DNA of 15,966 nt from Silvanigrellaceae bacterium. GTDB taxonomy: Bacteria; Bdellovibrionota_B; Oligoflexia; Silvanigrellales; Silvanigrellaceae. Both the position numbers and the translations under genes were made by a program. The stretch is from the NCBI GenBank assembly GCA_049423385.1, contig JBMSQQ010000080.1, positions 1-15,966 on the forward strand, given 5' to 3'. Under the pieces are notes generated by a model. It saw only the letters and a program-made list of their open reading frames with translations, was not told where the DNA came from and made no database searches. Below, one piece after another: positions 1 through 15,966 of this stretch (position 1 is its first letter; the number at the start of each line of letters is the position of its first letter).

Positions 1-2
1 CA

Positions 3-8
3 CTCCTC
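3..8 (-). promoter_or_regulatory. Shine-Dalgarno-like GAGGAG overlapping the yitJ stop codon; suggests a coupled downstream gene beyond the left edge
   Basis: Minus strand reads ATT TGA GGAGTG at the window end, so GAGGAG overlaps the TGA stop at 7-9. Confidence 0.5.
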
Positions 9-1896
9 AAATCAACGCAAGAGCAAGTTCAACCTGCCCCAGTGGCGCAGAGATTTGCAGACCCTGCACGTTTTTCCTGATGTCACTGATCAATTCAAAC
101 GCAATCTGCAAACCTTCCTTGCGCTGATCTTCGGTGGTTTTGCAGGCGCGCATCCGCTCGAGAAGCTTTTCAGGCACATAGACGCCAGGCACTTCATTGG
201 CCATGAATTCAGCGTTGCGCAAACTCATCAGCGGCCAGATTCCCGCGATGATGGGAACCCTGAACTGCGAGGAGAAATCCAGAAACCGCAGCAAGCTTTC
301 GGAATCAAATACCGGCTGCGTGATGGCCCACTGCGCTCCAGCCTCGACCTTGTACCTGAAACGCTCAAATTCTTTTTTCAAATCTGGGGCCACCGGATTC
401 GCACCAACACCAATCGAAAACCCCGTCGAACGGCCGATCGATGTTCCACCCAGATCCAGTCCCGAGTTCAACCGGGAGGCCATGTTCACAAGACCAATGG
501 CATCGATGTCAAATACAGCGGTCGCGGTTGGATAAGGCCCCAGTTTTGGTGGATCACCGGTGACGCAAAGAATATTTTTCAGCCCCAGGCCCGCTGCACC
601 AATCAGGTCGCTCTGAATACCAAGAATATTTCTGTCGCGACAGGCATAATGAAGAACTGTTTCAATTCCGATTTTCTGCTCGATGAGACAGGCCGCAGCA
701 AGGGCAGACATGCGCGCACTGGCGCGTGGACCATCGGGAATGTTGATGGCATCCACGCCTGCCTTTTTGCATTGCGCCGATCGCTCAAGCAGCTTGTCGG
801 TGTCGAGCCCCTTGGGTGGCAAAAGCTCAACCGAGACCACGAATTTTCCACCGGCAAGGCCACGGCTCCATTGCGAGCTCGAATCCTGGTCTGTTGGCTT
901 GGCCTGCACTGAGTTTGTCTCGGAAACAGAAACCGTCGAGCGGAAGGTTTCGCCACCGCGGAAGGCAGCACCCTGACGCAATGCACCCGACATTGCCCGA
1001 ATGTGTTGGGGCGTTGTTCCACTGCATCCGCCCAGAACCCGAACGTCCTGAAGCAATGCCTGGCGAGCAAACTCACCCATGTACTCGGGGCTCGCCATAT
1101 AAATCAGACGACCATCCACCTGCCGCGGAAGTCCGGCATTGGGCTTCAGAATGAGCGGTTTGTTAGTGGACGACTTGAGTCGTTTTGCAAGCTCAAGCAA
1201 CGGGGCAGGGCCATTGCCACCATTGACGCCAACAACATCGGCGCCCCATTCATCGAGCTTGCGAACAAACCATTCCGGCTCTGTTCCATAGAGCGTTTGG
1301 CCGTCATCATTGGTGGCCATCATCGCCACAACCGGATAATCACCCAACGATTTGACGGCACGAATCGCCTGATGAATTTCGTTCAGGTCGGCAAAACCCT
1401 CAAGGACAAACAGGTCAACGCCACCTTGTTGCAACGCCTTGGCCTGTTCAAAGAAAAATTCTTTCGCTTCATCAAACGAAGTGGGGCCCCAGGGCTCAAT
1501 CCTGACACCCAAGGGGCCCAGACAACCCGCAACCCAAACCACATCGCCGGCGACAGCCCGGGCGATTTGAGCTCCACGCAGATTGATTTCCAGGAGCTGT
1601 GAATCGAGGCCATAGTTGCGCAATTTGATGCGATTCGCACCCCACGTGTTGGTGGTCACAACCTGGGCACCCGATTGGATGTATTGTTTGTGGATGTTGG
1701 TAATCAGTTCGGGCTGTGAAAGGTTCACTTCATCAAAAGAACGATTGATGAATACGCCTTTTTCATAAAGCTGGGTGGCAACCCCGCCATCAAACAAAAA
1801 GGCCTGATTGCCCTCGTTGAGCAATGAGAAAAATCGTGAAACGCGCTCAAGAGGAAAGCGCACTGCGCCTTCCCCCGACTCGGGTTGGTTTGTCAT
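7..1896 (-). CDS. yitJ: Bifunctional homocysteine S-methyltransferase-like / 5,10-methylenetetrahydrofolate reductase (YitJ family); HMT zinc site degenerate
   Basis: 629 aa. N-terminal HMT motifs: FDGGVAT, TTNTWGAN, AGCLGP, PNAGLP, GGCSGTTPQHI. C-terminal MTHFR motifs: VELLPPKG, IPDGPRASARMS, HYACRDRN, TGDPP, KVEAGA, ITQPVFD. GGAG lies 7 nt before the ATG. Confidence 0.92.
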   Translation of the reverse strand: MTNQPESGEGAVRFPLERVSRFFSLLNEGNQAFLFDGGVATQLYEKGVFINRSFDEVNLSQPELITNIHKQYIQSGAQVVTTNTWGANRIKLRNYGLDSQLLEINLRGAQIARAVAGDVVWVAGCLGPLGVRIEPWGPTSFDEAKEFFFEQAKALQQGGVDLFVLEGFADLNEIHQAIRAVKSLGDYPVVAMMATNDDGQTLYGTEPEWFVRKLDEWGADVVGVNGGNGPAPLLELAKRLKSSTNKPLILKPNAGLPRQVDGRLIYMASPEYMGEFARQALLQDVRVLGGCSGTTPQHIRAMSGALRQGAAFRGGETFRSTVSVSETNSVQAKPTDQDSSSQWSRGLAGGKFVVSVELLPPKGLDTDKLLERSAQCKKAGVDAINIPDGPRASARMSALAAACLIEQKIGIETVLHYACRDRNILGIQSDLIGAAGLGLKNILCVTGDPPKLGPYPTATAVFDIDAIGLVNMASRLNSGLDLGGTSIGRSTGFSIGVGANPVAPDLKKEFERFRYKVEAGAQWAITQPVFDSESLLRFLDFSSQFRVPIIAGIWPLMSLRNAEFMANEVPGVYVPEKLLERMRACKTTEDQRKEGLQIAFELISDIRKNVQGLQISAPLGQVELALALI

Positions 1897-1988
1897 AAGG
1901 TGCTCCGGGTTCTGCCGCTCGTGTCCTACCAGCGGACTTCACAGCTGTGTCGAGCTTTATCGAAAGATCAAGGGATGGCAAGGATGGC

Positions 1989-2019
1989 GGCCCGCAAGTC
2001 CACCGATTGCGGGTCTTTT
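1989..2019 (+). terminator. Intrinsic terminator-like hairpin in the divergent yitJ/HDAC intergenic region
   Basis: GGCCCGCAA (1989-1997) pairs with TTGCGGGTC (2007-2015) with one G-U, 9-nt loop, followed by TTTT (2016-2019). The U-tract is short and the position is atypical. Confidence 0.35.
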
Positions 2020-2189
2020 CGTGGCCCCACTTGAGCACACGAGACAGGCAAAAATGTGAAGCCGTGCCCAAGCAAACGTTTTTTTGACCCAAACCAATGG
2101 ACCCCACGGGAATGGTTCTGAATAATAGGTTCTGGATAGCTCGCTACGGGCGTCTAAACTGCCTATTCTTAAAGCACTTGGGATGGTGA

Positions 2190-3197
2190 ATGAAGGTTTT
2201 CTACGATCCGGTCCAAAAAACTCACGTGCTCTCGCACGAGATCATTGCCGGAAAGCGATTCCGTCACCACGAGCGACGGGCTCGAATCGACATCATTCGT
2301 CGCCACCTGAAAAGTCATGGCCAGTTTGAATTTATTGTCCCGGAAGCACTTCCCATGGAAGCCGTGCTTGCGGTTCACGACGAAGCATACATTCGCTTTC
2401 TCGAAAGCTCACAGATGCTCTCCAAGGATGAAGTCATCTGGCCTTACGTCTTTCCATGCGATCGCCGGGTTCCGGTTTACGAACCTGTGACCGTATTCAC
2501 CGCAGGATATTATTGTTTTGATGTTGGCACCCCCATCATGAGCGACACCTGGCAGGCTGCCATCGCGGCCGCATCGGGTGCATACGCTGCCGCCCAGCAT
2601 CTCAAGAAGACGGGAGAGACCTGTTACGCGCTCGCGCGTCCGCCCGGACACCATGCTGCCGCTGCATTGTTTGGTGGCTACTGCTACCTCAACAACGCAG
2701 CCATCGCTGCCCGGTATCTTTCACAATATGGAAAGGTCTTGTTGATCGACTTCGACTATCATCATGGCAACGGAACCCAATCCATTTTCTATGATTCTTC
2801 AGAAGTTTTTTACCTCAGCACGCATGGCAATCCGGCCATCGAGTATCCTTATTTCACCGGATATGAGCATGAAGTTGGTATCGATGACGGGGTCGGATTC
2901 AACCTCAATTGCCCGATGGAGCCGCACTGCGGGCCCGAACATTATTTTGAGGTCTTCCACGCTGCGGTTGAAAAAGTACTGAAAAAATTCGATCCAAAAT
3001 TTATTGTCTGTTCGTGTGGATTCGACGTTGCCGACAAAGACCCGCTGGGTCATTTCGGTTTGCAGCCTGAGCATTTCCATTCGCTCGGCGAAACCATCAA
3101 GGCAATCCGAAAGCCAACGATGCTCGTGCAGGAAGGTGGTTACCTGGTGGAACGACTCGGCCTGAACGTCGAGGCGTTCCTCACAGCATTTTTGTAA
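2190..3197 (+). CDS. Zn-dependent histone deacetylase family protein, acetylpolyamine amidohydrolase-like
   Basis: 335 aa. Motifs RPPGHHA, GGYCYLNNAAIAA, DFDYHHGNGTQ, GFD..DKDPLG and QEGGY; catalytic and metal residues appear intact. YCFDVGTP and EYPYFTG resemble the APAH subgroup. Confidence 0.92.
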   Translation: MKVFYDPVQKTHVLSHEIIAGKRFRHHERRARIDIIRRHLKSHGQFEFIVPEALPMEAVLAVHDEAYIRFLESSQMLSKDEVIWPYVFPCDRRVPVYEPVTVFTAGYYCFDVGTPIMSDTWQAAIAAASGAYAAAQHLKKTGETCYALARPPGHHAAAALFGGYCYLNNAAIAARYLSQYGKVLLIDFDYHHGNGTQSIFYDSSEVFYLSTHGNPAIEYPYFTGYEHEVGIDDGVGFNLNCPMEPHCGPEHYFEVFHAAVEKVLKKFDPKFIVCSCGFDVADKDPLGHFGLQPEHFHSLGETIKAIRKPTMLVQEGGYLVERLGLNVEAFLTAFL

Positions 3198-3202
3198 AAT
3201 GA

Positions 3203-3230
3203 CTCCGGGCGGTCCGATAGCCGCGTGGAG
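3203..3230. terminator. GC-rich imperfect hairpin just after the HDAC stop
   Basis: CTCCG-G-GCGG pairs with CCGC-G-TGGAG. No U-tract follows on the + strand; A-runs flank both sides. Confidence 0.25.
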
Positions 3231-3338
3231 AAAAAGGTCTGAGAAATTCTCTGTCAAACCATTTGGCAGTAGAAAAATCCTTTCATAACTTTTTCCACCT
3301 CACAAAAGACAGGGAGAACTTTAAGTTCGCTGCTATCA

Positions 3339-3785
3339 GTGGTTGGCCTCGTCGGCTGCAAATCCTCTGGTTCAGAAACCTCCAGCCGCTGCAATTTGAA
3401 CCCAGAGCAAGCCAAGAAATACAACGAATGCATGGAAAGCAGTCCAACCGAGTACGCGCAGGACGAACTTCACTGTTCCATTTATCCAGCAACGAATAAA
3501 AAGGCTTTAAAAGGAACAACAAAAGTATTGAGCGAGACCTGCATCAAGTCCTGGCATAAGAAGATCAAGACCGGCGACACCTGCTACGTGACAATCAGCC
3601 CGGGCCAATCCAACTTCACTGGCATCTTGAATCGCACGAATTACTTCCTCCGCATGACCGCGAGAGCAGACGAAAGCAACCCGGGTTCCATCCGCAGCGA
3701 GCCCAAATTCCTGGGCTCGCTTTCTGACTATTTATTTTCAAAGTTCTCTGCTCTTCCAGATGGAAAAGCGGAGAAATATTCCTAA
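3339..3785 (+). CDS. Probable lipoprotein, hypothetical; start codon uncertain
   Basis: Lipobox LVG|C followed by a Ser-rich tether (CKSSGSETSS) and five further Cys. The frame is open upstream to the TAG at 3270-3272 and encodes QKTGRTLSSLLSVVGLVGC, but has no ATG/GTG/TTG before 3339. Confidence 0.55.
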   Translation: MVGLVGCKSSGSETSSRCNLNPEQAKKYNECMESSPTEYAQDELHCSIYPATNKKALKGTTKVLSETCIKSWHKKIKTGDTCYVTISPGQSNFTGILNRTNYFLRMTARADESNPGSIRSEPKFLGSLSDYLFSKFSALPDGKAEKYS

Positions 3786-4705
3786 AAGAAGTATCCAAGA
3801 TAGAAGTTGAACAGGCGAAGGCTCGGAAAATCAGCGAAATTCTTCCTGTAATTCTGAGCTTGCAAGACGTCATTCTCGGCGGGATCCACTTCGGATGTGA
3901 ATTTTTGCGAGAAGTCGAATACCGGCACTGAAATGCCGAACCACTCACACCCGAAGAAATAATCACCCTTGCTCCAGTCCTTGCCAAATCCCATCTGGAT
4001 CTGCAACTGCTCGAATTTCGAATAGAGGATCGGCAGTCGATTGGGATTATAAAATTTGGATTCGGGACCGACGTAGAATTCATTGCGTCCCGAGAATATT
4101 TCATAAACAACTGCGCCGCTCAAAAACGAATCCACTCCAAACATCCTCCTGAAAACTGGAGCCGACGAATCTCGGATGCTGAATTTCGCCAGGGCGCCGA
4201 TTCTCAACCGCTTCCAATAGTCGTCATAACAGCCGCCATTGTGGGAAAAAATACAAATCTCTTTCACCTCGGGAACCCAATCCAGAGAACCCTCAAAACC
4301 CCAATGTTCCGTCAGTCCACGTCCAATGGCGAGAGTTAGTCCCCTCACAAACATCAATCCAGCACCCACCCGAACATGGTTGCCATTGAAATCTTCCAAT
4401 CCCATGCCAGGACCAGACTCCCTGTCATCGACATGTTCCTCAGCGCTTCTGGAGGGCTTGGAATTGGTCGTTCCGCCTGCAGCAATTAAAAAATCTGGAC
4501 TTCTTTCTTCAATCAAATGGCCGCGCAAGACATCTCGCTCACTCTCCGAACGAGAATCATGGTCGGCCAGATGTAAATTCGCGAATGATTGATCTCTTAA
4601 ACCTTCATAATCCTCTGTCGAACTCTCCCGGATTGATGCATAAGCTGTGCAAAACAACACTGATAAGGACAAGCATACAAACCTGAAGAATCGTATATCT
4701 TTCAA
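3782..4705 (-). CDS. Putative outer-membrane beta-barrel protein
   Basis: 307 aa. Signal peptide MKDIRFFRFVCLSLSVLFCTAYA, acidic disordered N-region, amphipathic Gly/aromatic strands, and C-terminal beta-signal-like LFNFYLGYFF ending in Phe. TTG start with GAGGG upstream. Confidence 0.7.
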   Translation of the reverse strand: MKDIRFFRFVCLSLSVLFCTAYASIRESSTEDYEGLRDQSFANLHLADHDSRSESERDVLRGHLIEERSPDFLIAAGGTTNSKPSRSAEEHVDDRESGPGMGLEDFNGNHVRVGAGLMFVRGLTLAIGRGLTEHWGFEGSLDWVPEVKEICIFSHNGGCYDDYWKRLRIGALAKFSIRDSSAPVFRRMFGVDSFLSGAVVYEIFSGRNEFYVGPESKFYNPNRLPILYSKFEQLQIQMGFGKDWSKGDYFFGCEWFGISVPVFDFSQKFTSEVDPAENDVLQAQNYRKNFADFPSLRLFNFYLGYFF

Positions 4706-4797
4706 GATTGACTACCCTCGAAATTTGTCATGAATCTTTGTTGTATTTCTTGAAGCTTCAAGAATCGAAGAGAAATCCTAATCCTGGCATCATAATC

Positions 4798-6447
4798 TCA
4801 AAGCCTGTGTAAGAAAACACTGACCACCGTCTTGTAGCCAACATCTGTTTCAAGATCCCGCCGCACGGCAATGCGCAGTTCTTCGCCGAGGCTGTCGGCA
4901 TTCAAACTTGATTTTCTCTGCGCACGAATGATCTCGCGGAACGACGATTTGAAAACTTCCATCACCCGATCGGATGTCACATTGACACCGCGGACCTGAA
5001 TCTTCGGATCTGCGAGCAGTCGGCTCAGGCTGGAATCTGCGACCGCAGACACTTCAATGATGCCGTTGCGCGCAAGCATTACGCGATTACGCAAAACATC
5101 ACTCTTGCCGGACAAAACGCGATCGCTGCCCACAAAATCGCGACCCGATTCCCAGCGATCGGTGACGCCCAAGGGCTCTGGCCCGATGCTCAGCACATCT
5201 CCATTTTCAACAAGAAAACAATTCTCCGGCTTCACACCAGCCGATTCTGCAACACGCAAATGTTGAACCAGATTGCGGTATTCTCCATGCAGTGGCATAA
5301 AAAATTTCGGCTTCACCAGTGCGATGCAATCTCGCAAATCCTCGACATATCCATGCCCACTCACATGAACATCGGCATCCTTGCCCGTCAGGACGCGGCA
5401 GCCCAATCTCCAAAATTGGTTGATCAGGACATTGATGGATTTCTCGTTGCCGGGAATCGCCCGGGCCGAAAGAATCACAACATCATTTCCGTCCAACTTT
5501 ATGTTCTCCATGCTGCCAAATGCAAGACGATTGGCGCCCGAAAACATTTCTCCTTGGGTGCCAGTGCAGATGATGCAAAGCTCATGTGCCGGAATCAGCT
5601 TGAGCTCATCATTTGAAACAACAAAATTGTCATCCACGTCGCTGATAATGCCGAGTCTTCGAGAGATTTCGTAATTGCGCAAAAGAGATTTACCCAGCAA
5701 CAAAACACGCCGACCAGTGGCTTTCGCTGCATCGAAAATACTCTGCACGCGCCATATGTTGCTGGCAAACGTCGCCACCACCACACGGCCCGAAGATGAT
5801 TTGAAAAGTGCTTCGAGATTTCCACCAATTTTCTTTTCCTCGCGATCACGTCCGGGCACAAAGACGTTCGTCGAGTCGGCCGTCATCAACAGCGTCTGTT
5901 TGCCCTGGGTGATGCGAGCCAGATTGTCGAGCGTCACCGACCCTTCGGGAGCCGAGCGGTCGACGCGATAATCACCTGTGTGCAACAGGTTTCCATATTT
6001 TGTTTCAAAATAGAGTCCACAGGCATCCGGAATACTGTGATTGACCGGATACGGAGTCACGGCAGCCTGGCGAAATGTTGTTTTTTGCCAAACCTGCCAG
6101 ATGTGAATCTCGGGCGCTTCCATTCCGAGTCCACGGAATTTTTCCTTGATGAGCTCTGCAGTGAACTCGGTGGTGTAGATAGGCGCCGGGAACTCGCGAT
6201 AAAGCCAGGGCAGGGCACCGATGTGATCTTCATGACCATGAGTGATAAGCCATGCCGTGGGACGAATGCCGCGCTCGCGCACCGCATCCATCGAAGGAAA
6301 AATAAGATCCATTCCCGGAATGGTCTCATCGGCAAAAAGCGTTCCGCAGTCCACAAAGAACCACGACTCATCAACCCGCCAAAGTGTGAGATTCATTCCA
6401 ATCTCGCCACACCCACCCAGGGGAATAACCTGAAAAGATTTGCTCAT
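4798..6447 (-). CDS. rnj: Ribonuclease J (metallo-beta-lactamase/beta-CASP)
   Basis: 549 aa. Motifs IPLGGCGEIGMN, ITHGHEDHIG, VNHSIPD, HTGDY, TFASN, TGTQGE, IPGNE, HVSGH, PLHGEYR. Confidence 0.95.
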   Translation of the reverse strand: MSKSFQVIPLGGCGEIGMNLTLWRVDESWFFVDCGTLFADETIPGMDLIFPSMDAVRERGIRPTAWLITHGHEDHIGALPWLYREFPAPIYTTEFTAELIKEKFRGLGMEAPEIHIWQVWQKTTFRQAAVTPYPVNHSIPDACGLYFETKYGNLLHTGDYRVDRSAPEGSVTLDNLARITQGKQTLLMTADSTNVFVPGRDREEKKIGGNLEALFKSSSGRVVVATFASNIWRVQSIFDAAKATGRRVLLLGKSLLRNYEISRRLGIISDVDDNFVVSNDELKLIPAHELCIICTGTQGEMFSGANRLAFGSMENIKLDGNDVVILSARAIPGNEKSINVLINQFWRLGCRVLTGKDADVHVSGHGYVEDLRDCIALVKPKFFMPLHGEYRNLVQHLRVAESAGVKPENCFLVENGDVLSIGPEPLGVTDRWESGRDFVGSDRVLSGKSDVLRNRVMLARNGIIEVSAVADSSLSRLLADPKIQVRGVNVTSDRVMEVFKSSFREIIRAQRKSSLNADSLGEELRIAVRRDLETDVGYKTVVSVFLHRL

Positions 6448-6456
6448 GAAAAGCCT

Positions 6457-8211
6457 TTATCTTGAATACCTGTCGAGAGTATCGAGATTCTCGCGTACAA
6501 CAAAACGGAAGGGAAAGGAAATCGTGATGGCGCCGTTGATCGGCTTGGGAAAAGTCCATCCTTTGACCTTCTTTTCCAGACAGGCAATGAATCCTGAATC
6601 CTTGATACTCGTTTTTTCAACCTTTGCCTTGTGCAGTTTTCCACTCTCGGCAATTGTCCATTTCCATATGATTGATCCACTCAAGCGTGGATTCCGGTTC
6701 AGCGCAGTATCGTAACATCCTTTCACCTCGGGGCTGCGACTGCGCACAAACGATTCCACTTCAGTCATGCTGATCTTGGGAACCGGCTTGGGTGCGGGAG
6801 GAGGAGCGACTACTCCCAACGACAAATCCGCATTTTTAAACACCTGCTCATCGGATCCACCCAGAATGGAGTTCGTCGGCATCGTCAAGACGCTTGCAAC
6901 AGAGAGCGAATCCCCCGACCAAACCACCGGAAGCCTTGAGCCGTATGATCGCTCTTCATTTCCATCGCCACCATTCTTGTTCTTCCTCTGACGTTCTGCA
7001 GCCAGGGCAGCGAAACTTTCCGCAACATGAAAGTTTTGCTTCTCATCTTGAAAAGCCGGCTCGGCAAGCCGGAAAAACAGGCCTGGTTCTTTAGGCGGAT
7101 CAAAAATCTGTTGAATCTCTGCGTTGTCCTGTTTGTAGAAAGACTTCATGTAATCGTGTTCGACTTCGATCATGTCGACAGCTGCCGCATAGGTTCGTTC
7201 CAACCGCTCGAGGCGCGCTCTCACACGCTCTGGTATCGAACCATTGGCCTCGCCCGCAACCACGACCCGAAAGGGTGTGTATTCATTTTGCCCGCGAAGA
7301 AAAGTTCCAGGAGCAGCAGCTTCCCGCCGCTCGCTGACTTTTTTCCAGTTCTCGTCGAGCACCGACTGCCATTGTCGATGTCTCAGCAATGCATCCTCGG
7401 GCACACTGATGCCATGCAGCACTGGAACAGACGAATCATACCGACGTCCGGATTCCTCACTCGTCCATTTTTTCTGAAGCTCATCGACCCACTCAACCAC
7501 CTGCCTGAATGCCGCTTGCGAACTGAACCCGCTGTTGAACGCCCATGGCAACATCCTGAAGTGGTCAGGATGAACAATATCAACGGCTGCGAAAGGTGAA
7601 AGGTCGCGCAAATCCTTGAACGCATGCATGGGAAACTTGTTGAGCCAAACCACGCCAGGAATTGTGACCAGCACTGAGGCAACGACTCCCAAAAAGAATC
7701 CCATTTTCTCCAGTGGCGTTTGTCCGTGTGGCAAGCCAAAGGGTGCTTTGGGTGCGCCGGCCATTTTTGGAACAGCTGGAAGTTGTTTCGGCTTGGCAAC
7801 GCGAAAGACTATTTTGTAACCCGATATTTCGAGCGCACCACGACTTCCCAATGGAATCGGAACCTCCAAGGGTTCCAGTACCGAAGCAAGCTCCTTGAGA
7901 GCTCCGCGCGGAGCAATAAAATCGCGCACGGAACCGAATCTCTGCCCATCTGAAACAAATCCATCGAGATGTGGATCGAGGCGCACCCTGGCCCCCCAGC
8001 GCGTCACCGAAAAAAGAAACAGATCGTTGGGAAAAGGGGCAAAAGGAACACTCATTTCAGCTTTGTTTGACTTGCCAATACGCACATCGATTGTCCCCTT
8101 CAGTGCAAATTCGGCTTCGCACTGAAGTGCAGGCCCCTGGTAAACCTGCACGTAAAGTTTGGCGGGAGTTTTTTCTGCGACTTTTTTTGCAGAAACTTTC
8201 TTGGCAGCCAT
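6457..8211 (-). CDS. GltG/AgmX(PglI)-like bitopic inner-membrane protein with C-terminal TonB-C-like domain
   Basis: 584 aa. N-terminal beta-rich FHA-like region, single TM (aa ~170-190), helical periplasmic region, Pro-rich linker APPPAPKPVP. C-terminus VKGCYDTALNRNPRLSG..WTI..SG...CL..KVKGWTFPKP..GAITISFPFRF is typical of the AgmX/PglI C-terminal domain. TGATG coupling with the upstream gene. Confidence 0.82.
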   Translation of the reverse strand: MAAKKVSAKKVAEKTPAKLYVQVYQGPALQCEAEFALKGTIDVRIGKSNKAEMSVPFAPFPNDLFLFSVTRWGARVRLDPHLDGFVSDGQRFGSVRDFIAPRGALKELASVLEPLEVPIPLGSRGALEISGYKIVFRVAKPKQLPAVPKMAGAPKAPFGLPHGQTPLEKMGFFLGVVASVLVTIPGVVWLNKFPMHAFKDLRDLSPFAAVDIVHPDHFRMLPWAFNSGFSSQAAFRQVVEWVDELQKKWTSEESGRRYDSSVPVLHGISVPEDALLRHRQWQSVLDENWKKVSERREAAAPGTFLRGQNEYTPFRVVVAGEANGSIPERVRARLERLERTYAAAVDMIEVEHDYMKSFYKQDNAEIQQIFDPPKEPGLFFRLAEPAFQDEKQNFHVAESFAALAAERQRKNKNGGDGNEERSYGSRLPVVWSGDSLSVASVLTMPTNSILGGSDEQVFKNADLSLGVVAPPPAPKPVPKISMTEVESFVRSRSPEVKGCYDTALNRNPRLSGSIIWKWTIAESGKLHKAKVEKTSIKDSGFIACLEKKVKGWTFPKPINGAITISFPFRFVVRENLDTLDRYSR

Positions 8212-8771
8212 CAGCGAGACCCCTTTCCAGCGGGCCCGCCGACATCAACCGCATAGCGAAGCGTGTCGAATCCCAGTCGCACAAGACTGCCTGCGAATGG
8301 CTGAACCTGGCTCATCGGAATTCGAGAATCCACCCAAAGATCAACAACCCCCATGCCGGGCGTCACTTTACGCCTGAGAAGTGCAATCAGTTCGATGTCC
8401 CCGATACGCTTGCGCAGAAATTGTTCGACCTGTGCAGACCCCGATGGCCAAAGAAATGATTCTCCGCTGTCGAAGACGATTTTCATGGAAGCAGGGTCTT
8501 CTGTGGGACGAATGGCCAGAACCATTCCAACCGGAATGGATTCCTGTTTCATTGCGCCTTTTTCTGCCACCTGGTGAAGGGGCAGATTCATGCTTTCGAT
8601 GAGAAAAAAATCGCCGCGTATCTTGAGCGTCAGGATAAAAATCATCCACGTCAGGAAAGCACAGAATCCATAGGCAAGGAGAATTGCCTGGGTTGGTCGA
8701 CCTGCGTGTCGGGCAACACTCGGATGGCCTGTGCGCCAAATGCCAAATTGTTTGGTCCCCTGTGTAAACAT
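8211..8771 (-). CDS. ExbD/TolR (AglS/AglQ-like) family protein lacking the conserved TM Asp
   Basis: 186 aa. Single N-terminal TM (ILLAYGFCAFLTWMIFILTL) and ExbD-like C-terminal signature VDLWVDSRIPMSQVQPFAGSLVRLGFDTLRYAV. GAGGAG just before the ATG; lies in an exbB-like operon. Confidence 0.7.
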   Translation of the reverse strand: MFTQGTKQFGIWRTGHPSVARHAGRPTQAILLAYGFCAFLTWMIFILTLKIRGDFFLIESMNLPLHQVAEKGAMKQESIPVGMVLAIRPTEDPASMKIVFDSGESFLWPSGSAQVEQFLRKRIGDIELIALLRRKVTPGMGVVDLWVDSRIPMSQVQPFAGSLVRLGFDTLRYAVDVGGPAGKGSR

Positions 8772-8781
8772 CAGCTCCTCG

Positions 8782-9339
8782 TTACAACGGATTCACCAAA
8801 TCGACCGGTACAATTGCAGGACGAACCTCGACCGAGAAAACCTTTTTGTTGGCTTCCTCAACAACCGAAGCGAGTTCGGAAATTTCCTTGAATGTGAGCC
8901 TGGAGTTGCGCCTCGTCGATTCTGCAAAGGCGACAATATCAACCGCTGAACTTGAATTTTTTTTCAACCAGCTCTCAACATCCTGGGTCAACTGGCCTGG
9001 TCTCAGGTCAACAACGTTTTTTACAATCAGACGCCCCGCAGACTGAGGCGCTGCGATTTCAGAAATCGGACCCAAGACGACTCCTTTGGCCCCCCAATAA
9101 AAGGCCAATGTATCTTTTCCAAGCTTCAAAGCATTGCCGTCGGCACTGCGAGGCATGCTCGGATAGCTGAAAACCAGCATGCCCGCGGAACGTGGGTGCA
9201 TCAGCAGAATCTGGGATCCAGCCAACGCAGCTCCAATGGCCGTCATCACCGCGAGAATGCCTGACCACGCGCCCCAGGCGAGATCAAATGATCTCTTCCT
9301 CGTCTGGAACGGGATCCGACCGTTCTGCGCTTGCCACAT
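8782..9339 (-). CDS. Second, highly diverged ExbD/TolR (AglQ/AglS-like) protein; start reassigned to 9339
   Basis: 185 aa from the ATG at 9339, preceded by GGAGGT at 7 nt. Basic RKR, then TM (DLAWGAWSGILAVMTAIGAALAG); weak ExbD-like C-terminus (IVAFA...LTFKEISELASVVEEA). Position between exbB-like and exbD-like genes supports the call. Confidence 0.58.
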   Translation of the reverse strand: MWQAQNGRIPFQTRKRSFDLAWGAWSGILAVMTAIGAALAGSQILLMHPRSAGMLVFSYPSMPRSADGNALKLGKDTLAFYWGAKGVVLGPISEIAAPQSAGRLIVKNVVDLRPGQLTQDVESWLKKNSSSAVDIVAFAESTRRNSRLTFKEISELASVVEEANKKVFSVEVRPAIVPVDLVNPL

Positions 9340-10078
9340 CCTGATAACCTCCCTTGCCATTTCCACCAGCATCAGCCGTCTCGTGACTTGTTTCCGTTTG
9401 CATTTCTCCCACACTTGGCTGAGATGCAGCCACGGGCTGAGCGAAGACTGGTTGCATTTCGGGTGCCAATAGATTCAACACAACGGTCAGACTGTGCTCC
9501 ACCTCGCCCTCAAGGCGACTGGCCATGGCATCAAGAACTCCGTATGGAATCATCAAAAAGACCGATGCTGCGAGGCCAAGGGCAATCGGTGTGAGTGCCT
9601 GACTCAACCCACGGCTGAACGCAAAACTCTTGAGACCCATTTCAAGGCCATCAACCATCTGAAAGCTTTGCCATACGCCATTGACAGCAGCCAACGCACC
9701 CAGAAGAACAGCAACAGCTGCAAGGTTTGGAAGCTGTGAAATTCGTCTGCGGATTCGTGGCATGAAAGCCAGCGTTTCCTCTGAGACCACCATCCGCACC
9801 CGAAAATTTTCATTTTCATAAGCTTCAATCGCCTTCGCAGCGATCACCGGAAGGCCTGTGTTTCCGGAAGCCGCACAGTATTGGCGAGCGCGATCGAGAT
9901 CGCCCGCCGACAGCATGCGCCGCAATGTTGAGTTGAACTTTCCGAAATTCAATCGATAGGTCAATTGCAAGACAATAAACCGTTCGAAAACAATCACCCA
10001 TCCAACCGCAAAGATCGCCAGAATGATGTAGGGAATCGGTTCACGTGAACGAAAGAGCTCAAACATTTCCTGAATCAT
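9284..10078 (-). CDS. MotA/TolQ/ExbB family protein (AglR-like) with channel residues substituted
   Basis: 264 aa, three TMs. FER motif after TM1, PRIRRRISQL before TM2, LLGALAAVNGVWQSF and GLSQALTPIALGL align without gaps to ExbB TM2/TM3. Disordered acidic tail. ATGA overlap with the upstream gene. Confidence 0.85.
   Translation of the reverse strand: MIQEMFELFRSREPIPYIILAIFAVGWVIVFERFIVLQLTYRLNFGKFNSTLRRMLSAGDLDRARQYCAASGNTGLPVIAAKAIEAYENENFRVRMVVSEETLAFMPRIRRRISQLPNLAAVAVLLGALAAVNGVWQSFQMVDGLEMGLKSFAFSRGLSQALTPIALGLAASVFLMIPYGVLDAMASRLEGEVEHSLTVVLNLLAPEMQPVFAQPVAASQPSVGEMQTETSHETADAGGNGKGGYQDVASAERSDPVPDEEEII
9347..9352 (-). promoter_or_regulatory. Strong Shine-Dalgarno GGAGGT embedded in the 3' end of the exbB-like gene
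   Basis: Minus strand reads AAGGGAGGT-TATCAGG-ATG(9339). Confidence 0.7.
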
Positions 10079-10422
10079 TGCCCATCTCCAGCAGAATTCT
10101 TGTTCGCATTTTCAGGTTTGTTTTCCAGACCGGCATCCCCGCGAGCAGTCGAGCCGAAAGGCATTGCTTCCGGCGGAAGCAAAAACAAATCAGCATTTCC
10201 CAAGAGCGAAACCAGATCGTCCGAGGGCGTGCGTCTTGGTTTGACCGTAAAAATCTCCGGAGAAGTTTCAACCGGAAGTGGAACATCGGACAGCAAAGGT
10301 ACCGACTGATCACCACGAATGATCAACTCGTCATCTGCCCGTGTGATCCCCGGAGTCAGGATCAGCAACCCCACCGACAAAAGTGCCAAACTAAATTTTT
10401 GCAAAAAAACGTTCATAGTCAC
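10075..10422 (-). CDS. Small secreted hypothetical protein (possible GltF/CglF analogue); alternative ATG start at 10416
   Basis: Signal peptide MNVFLQKFSLALLSVGLLILTPGITRA, then DDELIIRGD and a Pro-rich low-complexity body. Stop overlaps the exbB-like start (ATGA, 10075-10078). Confidence 0.7.
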   Translation of the reverse strand: MTMNVFLQKFSLALLSVGLLILTPGITRADDELIIRGDQSVPLLSDVPLPVETSPEIFTVKPRRTPSDDLVSLLGNADLFLLPPEAMPFGSTARGDAGLENKPENANKNSAGDGQ

Positions 10423-10479
10423 AACCCTGCCACCCTCAAGGTAACAGATTCGAATTGCGGCAATTACTGCACTTTTTAC

Positions 10480-11754
10480 CTATTCTTGCTGTTGCATTTG
10501 AAGAAAGTGAAAGGAAGGGGAGAAACCGCGCAGCTGACTGTCGAGCAACACCCGGTGGGCACAGATTTCCGCGATGTCAGAATATCGGTCCAGTGCACCT
10601 TTGAGAACCTTTTCCCTGCTTTGAACAAGGTCGACCTGGCGTTCGATATGGTCAAGCCTCGATTGCTCGAGTGCGGCAATCAACAAACTTCCCGAACCGG
10701 CATAGAAATCGAGACAACGCTGGGGACGCGCCTTATCCAAAGGTGGAACCATGGAAAGAAGCCGACTCAGCAATCCCACAGGCTTCGGAAAATCAAACAC
10801 CCGAACATCACCAAACACTGCACGCAATTCGTCTTGGCCATCCTCGTTCGTGGGCCAACCGCTTCCATCATCTTCGGCATGACGGCGCTTTTGCTCATGC
10901 GCGAGAACGCGTCTTCGCAATCCGAATTGCCGGGTGATGTATCCCGTCTCTTCCCAGACTTTCTGTTGAATGCGAAATGGCCCGCGCACACGTGCAGCGG
11001 TCTGGACGAGTCCATCCGCAATCACGAGCGGATCAAGCAATTCAAAAGTCAACGACCGGTTTGTGTAAGCGCCTGGTGGATAAATCCCATCGGAACACAA
11101 GGCCGGAAAATGCGCCGGAAAATGCCTTTCAACAATCTTGTTGGTGGCGTTCAACACGGGCCGGGTCGACTCTTCGGTGGGATCACCCAGCAACTTTGGG
11201 CAGGCCCGTGCGTTTCGACTGAAAACCAAAACATACTCAAAAAGGGAACTCATGTGCTTGTCGAGAAAACTCGGCTTGCGCTTGCGTCGCCACTTGATGG
11301 TTCCCAGGTGATTCTCATGACCAAAGATTTCCCGCATCAGCGTCAACAAATGACAAGATTCATTGTCATCGATACTGACAAACATGACGCCATGGTCATG
11401 TAGCAAATCTCTTGCGAGCAACAGGCGGGGATAAATTTCATTCAGCCAGGCTACGGAGCCACCACCACTGCTTGAATCCCTCAGCGTTTTTTTGTCGCTG
11501 TAGGTCAGGTGACTGCCCGTGTTGTAGGGCGGGTCAATATAAATGACGTCGTATTTTTCTTGACCCTTGCGCAGCCATTGAAGCACGTCGAGGTTGTCGC
11601 CCGCATAAACCCGGTGGGAAACCGAATGAATCTCCTGCGGATTGGCCGTGTTCAAGCCACACGCGGGTCGCCACTCGCAAGGCTCTGCGAACCTTTCCAC
11701 AGGCGTGGCGCGAATCGCTGCGTCGACTTTTCCAGGCCAGACAAGCTCAAGCAC
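10480..11754 (-). CDS. Site-specific amino (likely N6-adenine) DNA methyltransferase, beta class, Type III Mod-like; no adjacent Res gene
   Basis: 424 aa. LVWPGK, GDNLDVL, catalytic IYIDPPYNTG, PRLLLARDLL..HGVMFVSIDDNE, FDFPKPVGLL and SAM-binding LDFYAGSGS, with motif IV before motif I. Confidence 0.92.
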   Translation of the reverse strand: MLELVWPGKVDAAIRATPVERFAEPCEWRPACGLNTANPQEIHSVSHRVYAGDNLDVLQWLRKGQEKYDVIYIDPPYNTGSHLTYSDKKTLRDSSSGGGSVAWLNEIYPRLLLARDLLHDHGVMFVSIDDNESCHLLTLMREIFGHENHLGTIKWRRKRKPSFLDKHMSSLFEYVLVFSRNARACPKLLGDPTEESTRPVLNATNKIVERHFPAHFPALCSDGIYPPGAYTNRSLTFELLDPLVIADGLVQTAARVRGPFRIQQKVWEETGYITRQFGLRRRVLAHEQKRRHAEDDGSGWPTNEDGQDELRAVFGDVRVFDFPKPVGLLSRLLSMVPPLDKARPQRCLDFYAGSGSLLIAALEQSRLDHIERQVDLVQSREKVLKGALDRYSDIAEICAHRVLLDSQLRGFSPSFHFLQMQQQE

Positions 11755-11762
11755 AACAGCTG

Positions 11763-12041
11763 TTATTCCTCGTCGTCGAAGTCGGCATCCGACTCCACTT
11801 CATCCCAATTGAAGCCATTGGCGGCAATCACGATCTCGTAATAAGTGTTGTTGCGCTTCACCAGGTCGCCCGTGAAGAAGCAATCTTGACCATCAACAGT
11901 CAAAACGTTCGGCACTTCTTCATCCTCGTTGTCGACATCGTAGCCAGCTTCGCGATAAATCGATACAACTGTTTCGACGTCCACAAGGTAGTATTGTCCG
12001 TTGCCAAAAGCGCGCTCAGCGATTGATGCAGGTGTCGTCAT
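11763..12041 (-). CDS. Small highly acidic hypothetical protein (92 aa)
   Basis: ATG at 12041 with GAGG 9 nt upstream. Hand count 23 D/E against 4 K/R. Stop lies 8 nt before the MTase start. Confidence 0.8.
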   Translation of the reverse strand: MTTPASIAERAFGNGQYYLVDVETVVSIYREAGYDVDNEDEEVPNVLTVDGQDCFFTGDLVKRNNTYYEIVIAANGFNWDEVESDADFDDEE

Positions 12042-12807
12042 GTTCGGTTTCCTCGATTTGGGGCGAAAATCATCGCCCGTGTGGCTTAGCCCAGAACCAT
12101 TCGGTGAACAAGATCTCCAGACGGCAACCCGGCAAAAGGGTGAACTCCGAAAGATCTTGCTCGAGGCACGCGAAAAACTCAAGCAACACGCCCTCTTGCA
12201 CAATCTTCCCTGGGGGCTCGAACACATCCGCCAAATCGCCACCTATTTGAAACATTGTGGTCTGTGCCCCTCCAACGACCACCTTTCACTCCATCGTGGC
12301 GACATTGCCGGATATTGGCCTATCGGTTCCGAGCTTGGGCTTTTGCCCGAATCACAACAGTCCAATGGCCGCGCAACGGGTGTGGACAAAACCAAGTGGT
12401 GGCTGCCGGGAATTCGACAGGACAAGCAGATGGACTGGTTCGAGTTGTGCGACGAGACGCAATCGTGGCCGAAGGACAAGCGCGGACTGCCGATTCCTCC
12501 GGAATCGGTTTTCAAAGGCCTTTTTCCCTCGAAACCCGACGTTCCCTGGCTCGTTTTGACTCCGTGTCTCGCTGCCGATCGCGCTGGTGTTCGACTCGGC
12601 TACGGGGGCGGATTTTACGACAGGTTCCTCCAAAAAAATAATGACAATTGCCTCTCCGTGGCATGTGTTCCGGCAAGCCTTTTTTTTGAAAAGGGCAAAC
12701 TTCCAGCGGATGACCATGACTTTCCAGTCGACATGGTCGTCACCGAAAATCAGGTTTGGGTGCGCGACGAACATGCGCTTGAATTCAAGCTGAAAAAATT
12801 TTCTTAA
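12040..12807 (+). CDS. ygfA: 5-formyltetrahydrofolate cyclo-ligase; start uncertain (ATG 12040 or GTG 12079)
   Basis: Motifs KGELRKILLEAR, YWPIGSE, GLPIP, TPCLAADRAGVRLGYGGGFYDRFL and PADDHDFPVDMVVTE. Confidence 0.88.
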   Translation: MFGFLDLGRKSSPVWLSPEPFGEQDLQTATRQKGELRKILLEAREKLKQHALLHNLPWGLEHIRQIATYLKHCGLCPSNDHLSLHRGDIAGYWPIGSELGLLPESQQSNGRATGVDKTKWWLPGIRQDKQMDWFELCDETQSWPKDKRGLPIPPESVFKGLFPSKPDVPWLVLTPCLAADRAGVRLGYGGGFYDRFLQKNNDNCLSVACVPASLFFEKGKLPADDHDFPVDMVVTENQVWVRDEHALEFKLKKFS

Positions 12808-13742
12808 CTGCTGAACAGAGATCGTGGATACAACTGGCAAGAATCAATCAAATCGCACACGCCGTCAGCCGCCTCTGTGAGTGGTCTGACCATGCAAAGT
12901 GCTTGTTGGTGAGTCTCGCTCAAGTCATTTTTCAACCCGGAGCTCCATGCTCCCGGAGCAACCTGCAATTCAACCGACCTCTCGGCTGCATGAGCAGTGA
13001 AACAACTCCACATCCGCTTCAGGGTTGAATCGTCTTTCGCAAAAAAAGAATGGACAACACCGGAGAAATCGACACCCTTTCCAATAAAGGCTCCAGCGGT
13101 CCACTCACCCTGCGCAGTTTCAAATCCGCAAACCAACATGTCGGGGATTTTCAGAACCATCTCCAATTTGCCGAGTGATGCATGGCTTTCGCAGGGCTTC
13201 CTGAAGCGCTCGAGTGCTTGCCAAATATGCTTTGCTTGACCTGCGGACAGCTCAGAAGTTTTTGTTGGCGCGATAAATCGCTCGCCAGAAGAACCAGAAA
13301 CATGGCCCGCGCGGTGGGAATAGAGTTTCTCCCTGCCAGCAGCCTTGAAACCGAGCGACCCGTAGAATTCATGTTGATCGGAAAACAAATATGCAAAATC
13401 GTGGCACTTGTCCGCCTGCAATTTTGCGAGAACGTTTCGCAGCAAAGCTTTTCCAAATCCCTGCCTTTGCCGGTCGGGGGCGACCGCCACGCTGCCGATG
13501 CAGGCGCCCCTCAGGAATCGCGGACTCGACCAGATTTCGGTATCAACAGTGCACGCAGCAACAATTGAATTGTTCTTGTCGCAGGCCACCAAAATTTGGG
13601 CAGACGAATTTGCAGTGAAGATGTGTGGAAAGCTGAGCGTATATTTTTCAACCGCAAAAGCTGCATCAAGAAGTTTCGAAAGGCGCCGATCGTCCCGCGA
13701 TTCCTGCCACTCGAAAAACCGAATGGATTGGTCGCCACTCAT
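12804..13742 (-). CDS. GNAT family N-acetyltransferase
   Basis: 312 aa. Acetyl-CoA motif A IGSVAVAPDRQRQGFGKALL and FYGSLGF. ATGA overlap with the psd stop. Confidence 0.85.
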   Translation of the reverse strand: MSGDQSIRFFEWQESRDDRRLSKLLDAAFAVEKYTLSFPHIFTANSSAQILVACDKNNSIVAACTVDTEIWSSPRFLRGACIGSVAVAPDRQRQGFGKALLRNVLAKLQADKCHDFAYLFSDQHEFYGSLGFKAAGREKLYSHRAGHVSGSSGERFIAPTKTSELSAGQAKHIWQALERFRKPCESHASLGKLEMVLKIPDMLVCGFETAQGEWTAGAFIGKGVDFSGVVHSFFAKDDSTLKRMWSCFTAHAAERSVELQVAPGAWSSGLKNDLSETHQQALCMVRPLTEAADGVCDLIDSCQLYPRSLFSS

Positions 13743-14692
13743 TTTTGTGATTCCGCGATATGGTCGCCCATCCGCACCAGCGTCTCCAGTCCGCGCGCCG
13801 AGTTTTCAACAAGATCGTCATCAAATTTGATTTTGTTCTTTTCAAAAAACAAAACGCAGGTGCTGCCGCCAAACTTGAAGTATCCCTTTTCATCGCCGCG
13901 CTGCACTTGAGTCCCGGCACGATAGGTTTGAACAATCGAGCCAACAAACATCGCACCGATTTCCATCATCATGACGGAACCAATGTCATTGTTCTTGAGT
14001 TCACAAATTGTTCTCTTGTTGAGGCAATAGACCGGGAGCCCCTGTTCCAATGCATACGGGCTGACACTGTGAAGCAATCCCGGAACAGTTTTGGTGATCC
14101 CGACCTTGCCCGAAACCGGGAAATGAAAGCGGTGATAGTCCGAAGGACAAAGTCTCAAGACCATGCAAGCCCCATCCCGATATTTGCTCGCAAGCTCTTC
14201 GCTCTTGTTGAAAAGATCGAAGAGTTGAATGGGCGCCCACTTGACGTAGGACAGCGTCGTGTCGTTGATTGCAGGAAACACCAAAAGTCGACCGTCACCA
14301 GGAGATGCGATCGCACTTTCACCCTGTGCAACTTCCCGTGCACCAGCGCGCAACTTGCGCGCAAAAAAATCATTGAAGCTGACGTACTCGACCAAATCCT
14401 TGCTGCATTCACCGACATCGATTTCAAGTGCTTTCACAAAATCTTCAATCTTGTGTTTGCTGGCAGCGGAGTCATTGTAGGCGCCGTAAATATTGCTGAG
14501 GACGCGATTGGTCAAAATCCGGCTGGTCACAGCCAGGCCCATGGGATGGCCATAAAACACCTTCATCACATCGTCGCCGTAAACCTTTTCCACGAAGGTT
14601 TGACCACTTCTGCGGTCGACGACCTGGATTTGTTTTGATTCAACTCCCAGGATCTTGGACACCGGAAATTGCCATTCACCCAACTTTGCCAA
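13739..14692 (-). CDS. psd: Phosphatidylserine decarboxylase proenzyme
   Basis: 317 aa. SFNDFFARKL, SPGDG, RLCPSDYHRFHFP, NKR, EIGA..VGSI, and self-cleavage motif GYFKFGGST. GGAGG upstream of the TTG start. Confidence 0.93.
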   Translation of the reverse strand: MAKLGEWQFPVSKILGVESKQIQVVDRRSGQTFVEKVYGDDVMKVFYGHPMGLAVTSRILTNRVLSNIYGAYNDSAASKHKIEDFVKALEIDVGECSKDLVEYVSFNDFFARKLRAGAREVAQGESAIASPGDGRLLVFPAINDTTLSYVKWAPIQLFDLFNKSEELASKYRDGACMVLRLCPSDYHRFHFPVSGKVGITKTVPGLLHSVSPYALEQGLPVYCLNKRTICELKNNDIGSVMMMEIGAMFVGSIVQTYRAGTQVQRGDEKGYFKFGGSTCVLFFEKNKIKFDDDLVENSARGLETLVRMGDHIAESQK

Positions 14693-14695
14693 CTC

Positions 14696-15966
14696 TCAGC
14701 CCTCCTGAAGACGCATCAAAAATTCGCGCTGCACGATTTTTCCTCCCTCAAGTCCACTGCCAGGACCCAACAGGATGAGCTGATCGGCGCACTCCTGAAA
14801 TTCCTTGTGATGCTCAACGACCACAAATGTATGCCCTTGTTTGGTCAGATCCCGCAATGTTTTGAGCAGTTGTCCAACATCTTTTTCAGAAAGACCACGG
14901 GTGGGTTCATCGAGAATACAGAACAACTCCTTTGAACCTTTGGTCAATGCCGCGGCAAGCCGCAATCGCTGGGCCTCTCCTCCCGACATGAAGGTCGTGG
15001 GGACGCCGAGCGGAAGATGCCCCAGCCCAAGGCGAACGGCAACCGACAATGCCCTGGAAAAAGCGGCCTCATGACCCAACGATGCATAGCAGTCTTCCAG
15101 ACTTGTCTCGAGCCATTCCTGAATGGTTTTTCCTCGCCAACGGGCGGCCAATGATTCACGTCGATAGCGCCCTCCCTTGCAATCGGGACATTGCTTGTCA
15201 ACTTCGCCGAGAAAAAACAAATCTTCGCGAATAAACCCCTTGCCGCCGCACTCATCGCAGGCACCCGCACCATTGAATGAAAAGTCACTCGACATCAGAT
15301 CGAGAGCCTTGGCCTCGGGAGTTTGCGAAAAATTGCGTCGCAGATGATCCATCAATCCCAGCACAGTTGCCGGTACACTCGTGATTGTCCTGTGCATGGC
15401 TTTTTGGTCAACCGAGACAATCTCAACGCATTCCATGAATCCATCCGGAAGCCGCAAATTGTTCCAGATTCCTCGACCATCATCCAAATCAAGCCTCTCA
15501 TTGCTCACAAGCCCCTTGTCCATGAACCAATCGAGAGCTGCTTCAAGACCACATTGAACGAGTGTCGATTTTCCAGCACCACTCGGACCACCAACAACTG
15601 TCAAACACCCCAGCGGAACGGCAATATTCAAATCCTTGCAATTGTGCATGGAAAAACCACTGAGAGAGACACAACTTTGCCGCGCGATCTGAAGAGCATC
15701 CACTGCCAATTTTTTACGTTCCGGACGCTTCAATTCAAGAGACTGCAAATCGAGCGTCAGTGACAGTGGCTCTTTGCCCTTGCGCGGCAACAACTCCCCG
15801 CCACGCGATCCTCCACCCGGACCCAACTCGTACCAAAAATCTGCTGCACGGATGAGTTCAGGATCGTGCTCCACCATCAGAACCGTGTTGCCCAGATCGC
15901 GCAATTCCCTCAAACAGTTCACAAGGTGCGGAATTTCAGCCCTGCCAAGTCCCACGCTGGGCTCAG
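14696..15966 (-). CDS. uvrA: UvrA-family excinuclease ABC subunit A-like ATPase, C-terminal part (5' truncated by the window edge)
   Basis: EPSVGL...LRDLGNTVLMVEHD, GPGGG..GGE, HNCKDL, Walker A GPSGAGKST, Zn finger CDEC/CPDC, signature SGGEAQRLRLA, ILDEPT, GPGSG..GGKIV. The frame is open to the edge; may be a paralog. Confidence 0.85.
   Translation of the reverse strand, partial: EPSVGLGRAEIPHLVNCLRELRDLGNTVLMVEHDPELIRAADFWYELGPGGGSRGGELLPRKGKEPLSLTLDLQSLELKRPERKKLAVDALQIARQSCVSLSGFSMHNCKDLNIAVPLGCLTVVGGPSGAGKSTLVQCGLEAALDWFMDKGLVSNERLDLDDGRGIWNNLRLPDGFMECVEIVSVDQKAMHRTITSVPATVLGLMDHLRRNFSQTPEAKALDLMSSDFSFNGAGACDECGGKGFIREDLFFLGEVDKQCPDCKGGRYRRESLAARWRGKTIQEWLETSLEDCYASLGHEAAFSRALSVAVRLGLGHLPLGVPTTFMSGGEAQRLRLAAALTKGSKELFCILDEPTRGLSEKDVGQLLKTLRDLTKQGHTFVVVEHHKEFQECADQLILLGPGSGLEGGKIVQREFLMRLQEG

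Follow-up and report, generated by a model that had tools for sequence, protein, structure and literature searches.

According to reviews, an Asp and two Thr residues are essential in the Ton and Tol systems and are conserved across MotAB, ExbBD and TolQR, and the characterised motors of the MotAB, ExbBD, TolQR and AglRQS type are described as dependent on one membrane Asp ringed by threonines (PMC12905483, PMC12204202). In Luciano et al. (2011; PMC3169522), the Agl-Glt core complex is presented as a conserved unit whose function outside gliding bacteria is unknown, and GltG (PglI) is described as a protein with a cytoplasmic domain, one helix, a long periplasmic part and a TonB_C-like end. 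A locus comparable to these systems was found in a freshwater Silvanigrellaceae bacterium (GenBank assembly GCA_049423385.1, contig JBMSQQ010000080.1). The 15,966 nucleotides (nt) of this contig that were analysed, positions 1 to 15,966 of the forward strand, are referred to as the window; the locus is an operon of five genes, g1 to g5, on the minus strand of the window at 6457-10422.

Sequence comparison identified the operon as an AglR-type paralogue of the Agl-Glt core envelope complex that is maintained by selection. Like AglRQS and GltG (PglI) of Myxococcus xanthus, it comprised one MotA/TolQ-type gene (g2), two genes for inner subunits of ExbD/TolR type (g4 and, tentatively, g3) and a gene for a bitopic AgmX/PglI protein (g5). 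Unlike the M. xanthus AglRQS proteins, the inner subunits encoded by g3 and g4 had no membrane Asp, and g2 had no Thr ring and carried a C-terminal DEEEII tail. The operon also resembled the E. coli TolQ-TolR-TolA and ExbB-ExbD-TonB systems in the families of g2 and g4 and in its order of outer subunit, inner subunit(s) and envelope-spanning protein, but differed from them in lacking the essential Asp and two Thr and in having two different inner subunits. The likeliest reading, which we give an even chance, is that the operon encodes a non-conducting, maintained trans-envelope connector (a 'pseudo-stator', as the first-pass annotation of the window had proposed) with an acidic tail that recruits a partner.

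The g2 gene (10078-9284, minus strand; 264 amino acids, aa) encoded an AglR/TolQ/ExbB-type membrane subunit. Its match to the Pfam model MotA_ExbB (PF01618) reached 37.6 bits against a cut-off of 22.9, in line with the ExbB-like assignment of the first-pass annotation, and was the lowest-scoring of nine MotA_ExbB matches in the genome. Using a profile of 19 g2 orthologs, TolQ and ExbB chains were the sole matches in the PDB; a phmmer search of the PDB with the single g2 sequence gave no match. The protein was 20-25% identical to its paralogues in the genome. A tree built by a quick method placed g2 and its orthologs in one DEEEII-tailed clade (Shimodaira-Hasegawa-like approximate likelihood ratio test, SH-aLRT, 100). 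Its neighbours were AglR-like proteins, the one of this genome among them, and TolQ and ExbB fell outside; in this grouping, too, g2 was like AglR of the M. xanthus AglRQS system.

Alignment of the g2 profile to E. coli TolQ (8odt) replaced, in order, a Pro by V124, a Thr by A131, a Glu by Q160, a Thr by I165 and a Pro by F174. The same five substitutions had been mapped by eye, and this profile alignment, an independent hidden Markov model (HMM) comparison with TolQ and ExbB structures, reproduced the mapping. The pore positions of g2 were V124, A131, N133, Q160, I165 and F174, with A131 and I165 standing for the two pore threonines (T148 and T181 in E. coli ExbB; T145 and T178 in TolQ). The Pro residues of the second and third transmembrane helices (TM2 and TM3) and the Glu of TM3 were not kept either (V124, F174 and Q160), although the Pro and Glu columns are weaker criteria: in the untailed outgroup described below, the first Pro column is itself occupied by Thr, and Glu is found in only 29 of 118 proteins.

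Column statistics were taken from 217 proteins. The window's clade was defined by Pro, Leu or Ser before the tail (n = 75), a sister clade by Lys, Arg or Gln before the tail (n = 22), and the untailed relatives formed the outgroup (n = 118). DEEEII was the C-terminal end of every member of the g2 family and was absent from the 118 untailed relatives. At the first Thr column, the outgroup had Thr in 111 proteins and the sister clade had T 17 and S 3, whereas the window's clade had A 61, T 6, S 5 and G 1. The second Thr column was Thr in 109 outgroup proteins and T 14 and S 5 in the sister clade; in the window's clade it was L 54, I 18, V 1 and T 1, so that Leu or Ile occupied it in 72 of 75. 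A further column of TM2, at the second position past the first Thr, was mostly hydrophobic in the outgroup (F 21, V 14, S 13, L 12), acidic in much of the sister clade (D 11 and E 2 of 22), and H 29, N 23 and Q 12 of 75 in the window's clade, the window itself having Asn. As the threonines are kept in the sister clade and in the outgroup, the alignment dates the joint change of these three g2 positions to the branch that leads to the window's clade. Within g2, the coordinated change seen in the first-pass annotation was thus borne out, with both pore Thr and TM2 Asp columns replaced together.

The g4 gene (8771-8211, minus strand; 186 aa) encoded a single-pass protein with a membrane helix from about residue 27, a periplasmic domain at 83-175 and a helix core without an acidic residue. 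It had no Pfam match. Its profile matched the periplasmic domain of E. coli ExbD in the PDB (E 2.3e-4) and, by hhalign, the genome's own four canonical ExbDs (65.6%, E 5.8e-5). The AlphaFold2 (AF2) model of g4 had a predicted local distance difference test (pLDDT) score of 79, and TolR/ExbD structures stood at ranks 1, 3 and 4 of its structural matches (Z 7.1, 6.4 and 6.4); Foldseek gave no clear match for g4. By profile and predicted fold, g4 is ExbD/TolR-like. In the sister clade, g4 proteins had in common a His close to where the helix ends on the periplasmic side, with an LNPRLG-like motif after it; the window's clade had K-I-R-G-D/E there.

The g3 gene (9339-8782, minus strand; 185 aa) encoded a second single-pass protein. 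Searches of Pfam, the PDB profile search and profile comparisons with g4 and with canonical ExbD gave no significant sequence link of g3 to ExbD. Its AF2 model (pLDDT 83.5) showed a membrane helix at 20-46 and a periplasmic beta-alpha domain at 78-178. TolR (5by4) was found at rank 11 with Z 6.1, tied with other RNase-H-like folds, and Foldseek returned RNase-H-like folds only, with TolR at rank 13. The earlier description of two ExbD-like small proteins therefore stands for g4, whereas g3 had a faint fold likeness.

None of the g3 and g4 hydrophobic cores had an Asp in any locus read from either clade. In the window, the cores of g3, g4 and g5 had no acidic residue, and no Asp, Glu or His lay within the helix cores of g2 to g5. 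One sister-clade g4 had an Asp just ahead of its hydrophobic core. All four canonical ExbDs of the genome retained the membrane Asp. Since the inner subunits of the sister clade also have no membrane Asp, the comparison makes its absence ancestral to the DEEEII family and not a recent loss. For this reason the coordinated loss in four genes that had been put forward did not survive, the more so as the canonical GltG of the genome has no S-x3-H motif (see below). The statement that neither ExbD-like helix contains an acidic residue was right for the hydrophobic cores and had overlooked Asp19 of g3, which sits directly ahead of the predicted helix.

The origin of Asp19 lies in an overlap of reading frames. 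At 9283-9339 g3 began inside g2, as it did in 53 other loci, and the g2 codons for DEEEII plus the stop, read one base later, gave the g3 motif TRKRSFD in the window. The g2 tail and the basic juxtamembrane motif of g3 therefore share the same bases (dual-coding core 9283-9304, minus strand), and this two-frame arrangement was present in 54 of 54 genomes across the phylum. The g2 tail was DEEEII in 53 of these and DEEEVI in one. The codon of Asp19 consists of the GA of the g2 TGA stop and the next base, and the g3 residue at this place tracked the g2 stop in all 54: TGA gave D (29) or E (4), TAA gave N (10) or K (2), and TAG gave S (6) or R (3). The remaining variation of the g3 motif (T/M, K/R, L/S, S/F/Y) was the outcome of synonymous changes in g2. 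Asp19 is thus a passenger of the dual coding. As a candidate equivalent of D25 of ExbD it was rejected: the residue is dictated by the g2 stop, and 21 of the 54 genomes have the non-acidic N, K, S or R at this place, so that it cannot be the conserved proton acceptor. An Asp or Glu at or near the D25 position had been named beforehand as evidence that would speak against the proposal; the acid found near the helix is, by its dependence on the stop codon, not that residue.

The g5 gene (8211-6457, minus strand; 584 aa) encoded a GltG (PglI)-like bitopic protein. Its C-terminal domain (residues 482-570) matched the AgmX/PglI model NF033768 at 86.2 bits (cut-off 40). The protein was laid out as a cytoplasmic beta-rich N-domain (about 1-165), a membrane helix (about 170-195), a long periplasmic region and a TonB_C-like C-terminal domain, an architecture conserved in 17 orthologs. 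The earlier name of TonB-C protein held for this AgmX/PglI (TonB_C-like) domain and not for the TonB_C model itself, where g5 scored 12.6 bits, below the 24.6 cut-off. The membrane helix read SVLVT, as had been noted, with no S-x3-H; g5 was in these respects unlike E. coli TonB and TolA. The motif was not lost by g5, because the canonical GltG of the genome likewise has no S-x3-H. Unlike M. xanthus GltG, the N-domain of g5 had no FHA match (0 of 17 orthologs by Pfam; none by PDB profile), and the score against GltG/PglI (NF033760) was 57.8 bits against a cut-off of 650, the GltG and GltJ models matching the C-terminus alone. Atlas leads (0.76-0.82) alone hint that the N-domain may be FHA-like. 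A conserved Glu ahead of the g5 helix was considered as a special site and set aside as not distinctive, canonical GltG also having acids there. The DEEEII tail of g2 might conceivably dock on the cytoplasmic domain of g5; a joint structure prediction for the two parts (g5 1-165, g2 200-264) scored 0.00 and gave no verdict.

Close database homologs were named Fluviispira, Spirobacillus and Silvanigrellaceae metagenome-assembled genomes (MAGs), which points to the Silvanigrellales. Orthologs of g2 were present in 40 of 41 relatives, and, of 131 genomes covered for the phylum, 109 had a full-length, high-scoring g2 ortholog (E <= 3.4e-58). Operon orthologs with the same gene order were found across the family and the class, the order g2-g3-g4-g5-RNase J was retained in all 20 wider loci read, and the reading frames were intact in all loci read. 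Ratios of nonsynonymous to synonymous substitution rates (dN/dS) were 0.15-0.42 for g1, 0.016-0.058 for g2, 0.10-0.32 for g3 and 0.12-0.21 for g4; these are pairwise Nei-Gojobori values against genus relatives with saturated dS (above 1.3), and are rough, yet far below 1. They indicate strong purifying selection and a complex that is maintained and not decaying, as the first-pass annotation had argued from the intact frames and as the syntenic orthologs also suggest. Canonical residues in close orthologs, together with relaxed selection on this copy, were not what was found: the window's clade shares the substitutions.

Using the g2, g3, g4 and g5 assignments, the complex can be pictured as follows. 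The g2 protein would be the AglR/TolQ-type subunit, g3 and g4 its ExbD/TolR-type partners, probably in a 5:2-like assembly, and the GltG-like g5 would extend outwards from the cytoplasm as far as the outer layers of the envelope. With the membrane Asp absent and both pore Thr and the TM2 acid replaced, the canonical Asp/Thr proton relay cannot operate. As the one conserved polar site of TM2 is moreover Asn, canonical proton-driven rotation is graded most unlikely for the window's complex, and it is likely, judged from its residues, that the complex conducts no ions. It would then serve as a fixed or partner-driven trans-envelope connector that is not turned by proton flow, with the cytoplasmic DEEEII tail as a putative docking site for a partner.

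Several observations weigh against a non-conducting connector. A Thr-Pro pair, T163-P164, lies two residues ahead of the second replaced Thr, and the first Thr column is still Thr in 6 of the 75 members of the window's clade. The TM2 column is polar in nearly all members, with a titratable His in 29 of 75. In some relatives the g3 helix carried a Glu at its periplasmic end, in place of the Gln of the window, and the ExbD-like nature of g3, argued from topology, gene position and the faint fold match, is weak. The very strong conservation of the g2 membrane helices fits a working channel too. That the sister clade retains the Thr ring although it has no ExbD Asp is a hint that the DEEEII family may always have had another coupling.

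The main rival is an ion-driven rotary motor with a relocated coupling site, which would lie on TM2 of the outer subunit and no longer on the ExbD-like helix; it is possible, though rated less likely than the connector. The gliding and type IX secretion motors GldLM and PorLM are of the 5:2 type and have their key membrane acid on the outer subunit (GldL or PorL). The TM2 Asp or Glu found in 13 of 22 sister-clade proteins resembles that acid, and no sequence relation of the DEEEII family to GldL or GldM is known. A relocated site would suit a family that as a whole has no ExbD Asp and yet includes a sister clade with both Thr, as it would the polar TM2 column of the window's clade, His in many members, and the strong constraint on g2. 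Against it, the window's g2 has Asn at this column, the residue of its genus and one without a titratable group. Ala and Ile have taken the places of the two Thr, the helix cores of g2 to g5 offer no Asp, Glu or His, and the TM2 column, two residues off the Thr column, probably lies on another helix face.

A decoy or brake, whose subunits would combine with those of active Agl, Tol or Exb stators in the same cell, had also been suggested and is improbable. Such stators exist in the genome. The search for canonical aglRQS paralogs that had been recommended found TolQ-TolR-TolA-like genes on contig C84, ExbB-ExbD on contig C111 and, on contig C5 (17.7-28.2 kb), an Agl-Glt-like cluster with an AglR-like gene, two ExbDs with Asp, an outer-membrane barrel, GltC, a large TPR protein, GltE and GltG (with FHA). 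The C5 cluster was complete, its Asp and Thr intact, and separate from the DEEEII operon; unlike the Agl-Glt machinery, the window had no GltC, GltD, GltE TPR or outer-membrane Glt genes. With the C5 AglR-like protein as the one query, no ortholog of it was found in any of the 13 genomes from a related genus, of which several are 96-99% complete, the best matches (about 1e-11) being g2 itself. The DEEEII operon was present in all 13, in 11 of them at E <= 1e-25. By this distribution the operon is independent of the AglR-like paralogue, and a decoy or brake role is weakened because the related genus has the operon and no such paralogue was found there. The operon also looks self-contained, since it supplies both inner subunits and a GltG-like partner itself, and g2 has only the 20-25% identity to the paralogues given above.

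Gene decay, or substitutions that are an alignment artefact, can be dismissed almost entirely: g2 is the weakest MotA_ExbB match of the genome, and g3 and g4 diverge quickly (45-79% identical among members of the genus), but every locus read has intact frames, the gene order holds throughout the phylum, dN/dS is 0.016-0.32 for g2 to g4, and the HMM alignment agrees, 111 and 109 of the 118 outgroup proteins having Thr at the same two columns.

The five open reading frames (ORFs) of the operon were intact and closely packed, with the overlaps and ribosome-binding sites described in the first-pass annotation. The g1/g2 junction was an ATGA overlap and the g4/g5 junction a TGATG overlap, and GAGGAG preceded g4. 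The start of g3 is most likely the ATG at 9339, behind AAGGGAGG and 56 nt inside g2, rather than the GTG of the longest ORF. The first gene, g1 (10416-10075, minus strand), encoded a small, probably secreted protein of 113 aa from its ATG, with an in-frame GTG at 10422; a hydrophobic signal-like segment was seen by eye at its N-terminus. No Pfam or NCBIfam family matched g1. BLAST orthologs of g1 were found only inside the genus, and in other genera of the family a g1-like ORF was seen by eye at the equivalent position.

On the other side of the operon, a gene matching the Pfam and NCBIfam RNase J models (4798-6447, minus strand) began 9 nt beyond g5, with no terminator-like site in the gap by terminator scan; the promoter and terminator scan as a whole found nothing exceeding chance. 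In each of the 20 wider loci read, RNase J came directly after g5, and it may be co-transcribed with the operon. No sequencing run recorded as RNA contained the stretch. Upstream of the operon in the window was an N6/N4 DNA methyltransferase gene (10480-11754, minus strand), whose C-terminal part also preceded the operon in two genus relatives; in the window it had no restriction gene as a visible neighbour. In several sister-clade loci an HD-GYP-type gene (cyclic di-GMP phosphodiesterase-like, by eye) stood directly upstream of the operon, where the window has the methyltransferase. A 307-aa ORF at 3782-4705 (minus strand) had no Pfam or NCBIfam family and ended in an aromatic residue, which to the eye recalls outer-membrane barrels. 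At 7-1896 (minus strand), one 629-aa ORF fused homocysteine S-methyltransferase and methylenetetrahydrofolate reductase domains.

At the level of the phylum, we propose, at somewhat less than even confidence, an AglR/TolQ-type stator family that never has the inner-subunit Asp, one order-level branch of which has also dropped the Thr ring and the TM2 acid; this branch would be the first natural pseudo-stator, of the 5:2 type and kept for some task that is not proton-driven rotation. No paper on the DEEEII-tailed family was found in the literature covered, most subscription journals lying outside that coverage.

The family offers several openings. The two sister clades lend themselves to comparison as a natural series, one with the Thr ring and a TM2 Asp and the other with neither, and the DEEEII tail is a ready bait for a cytoplasmic partner. 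Relatives of the Fluviispira/Spirobacillus type include genomes in one to a few contigs and are probably culturable, so that genetics, proton motive force assays and cryo-electron microscopy should be feasible. The encoding of the g2 tail and the g3 motif in two frames is a clean example of one frame fixing the residues of the other. For stator biology, a natural family that is conserved yet has no Asp, and in which one sub-branch has no Thr ring either, raises two questions: whether the Asp/Thr relay is truly universal, and what a stator complex without Asp and Thr can do.

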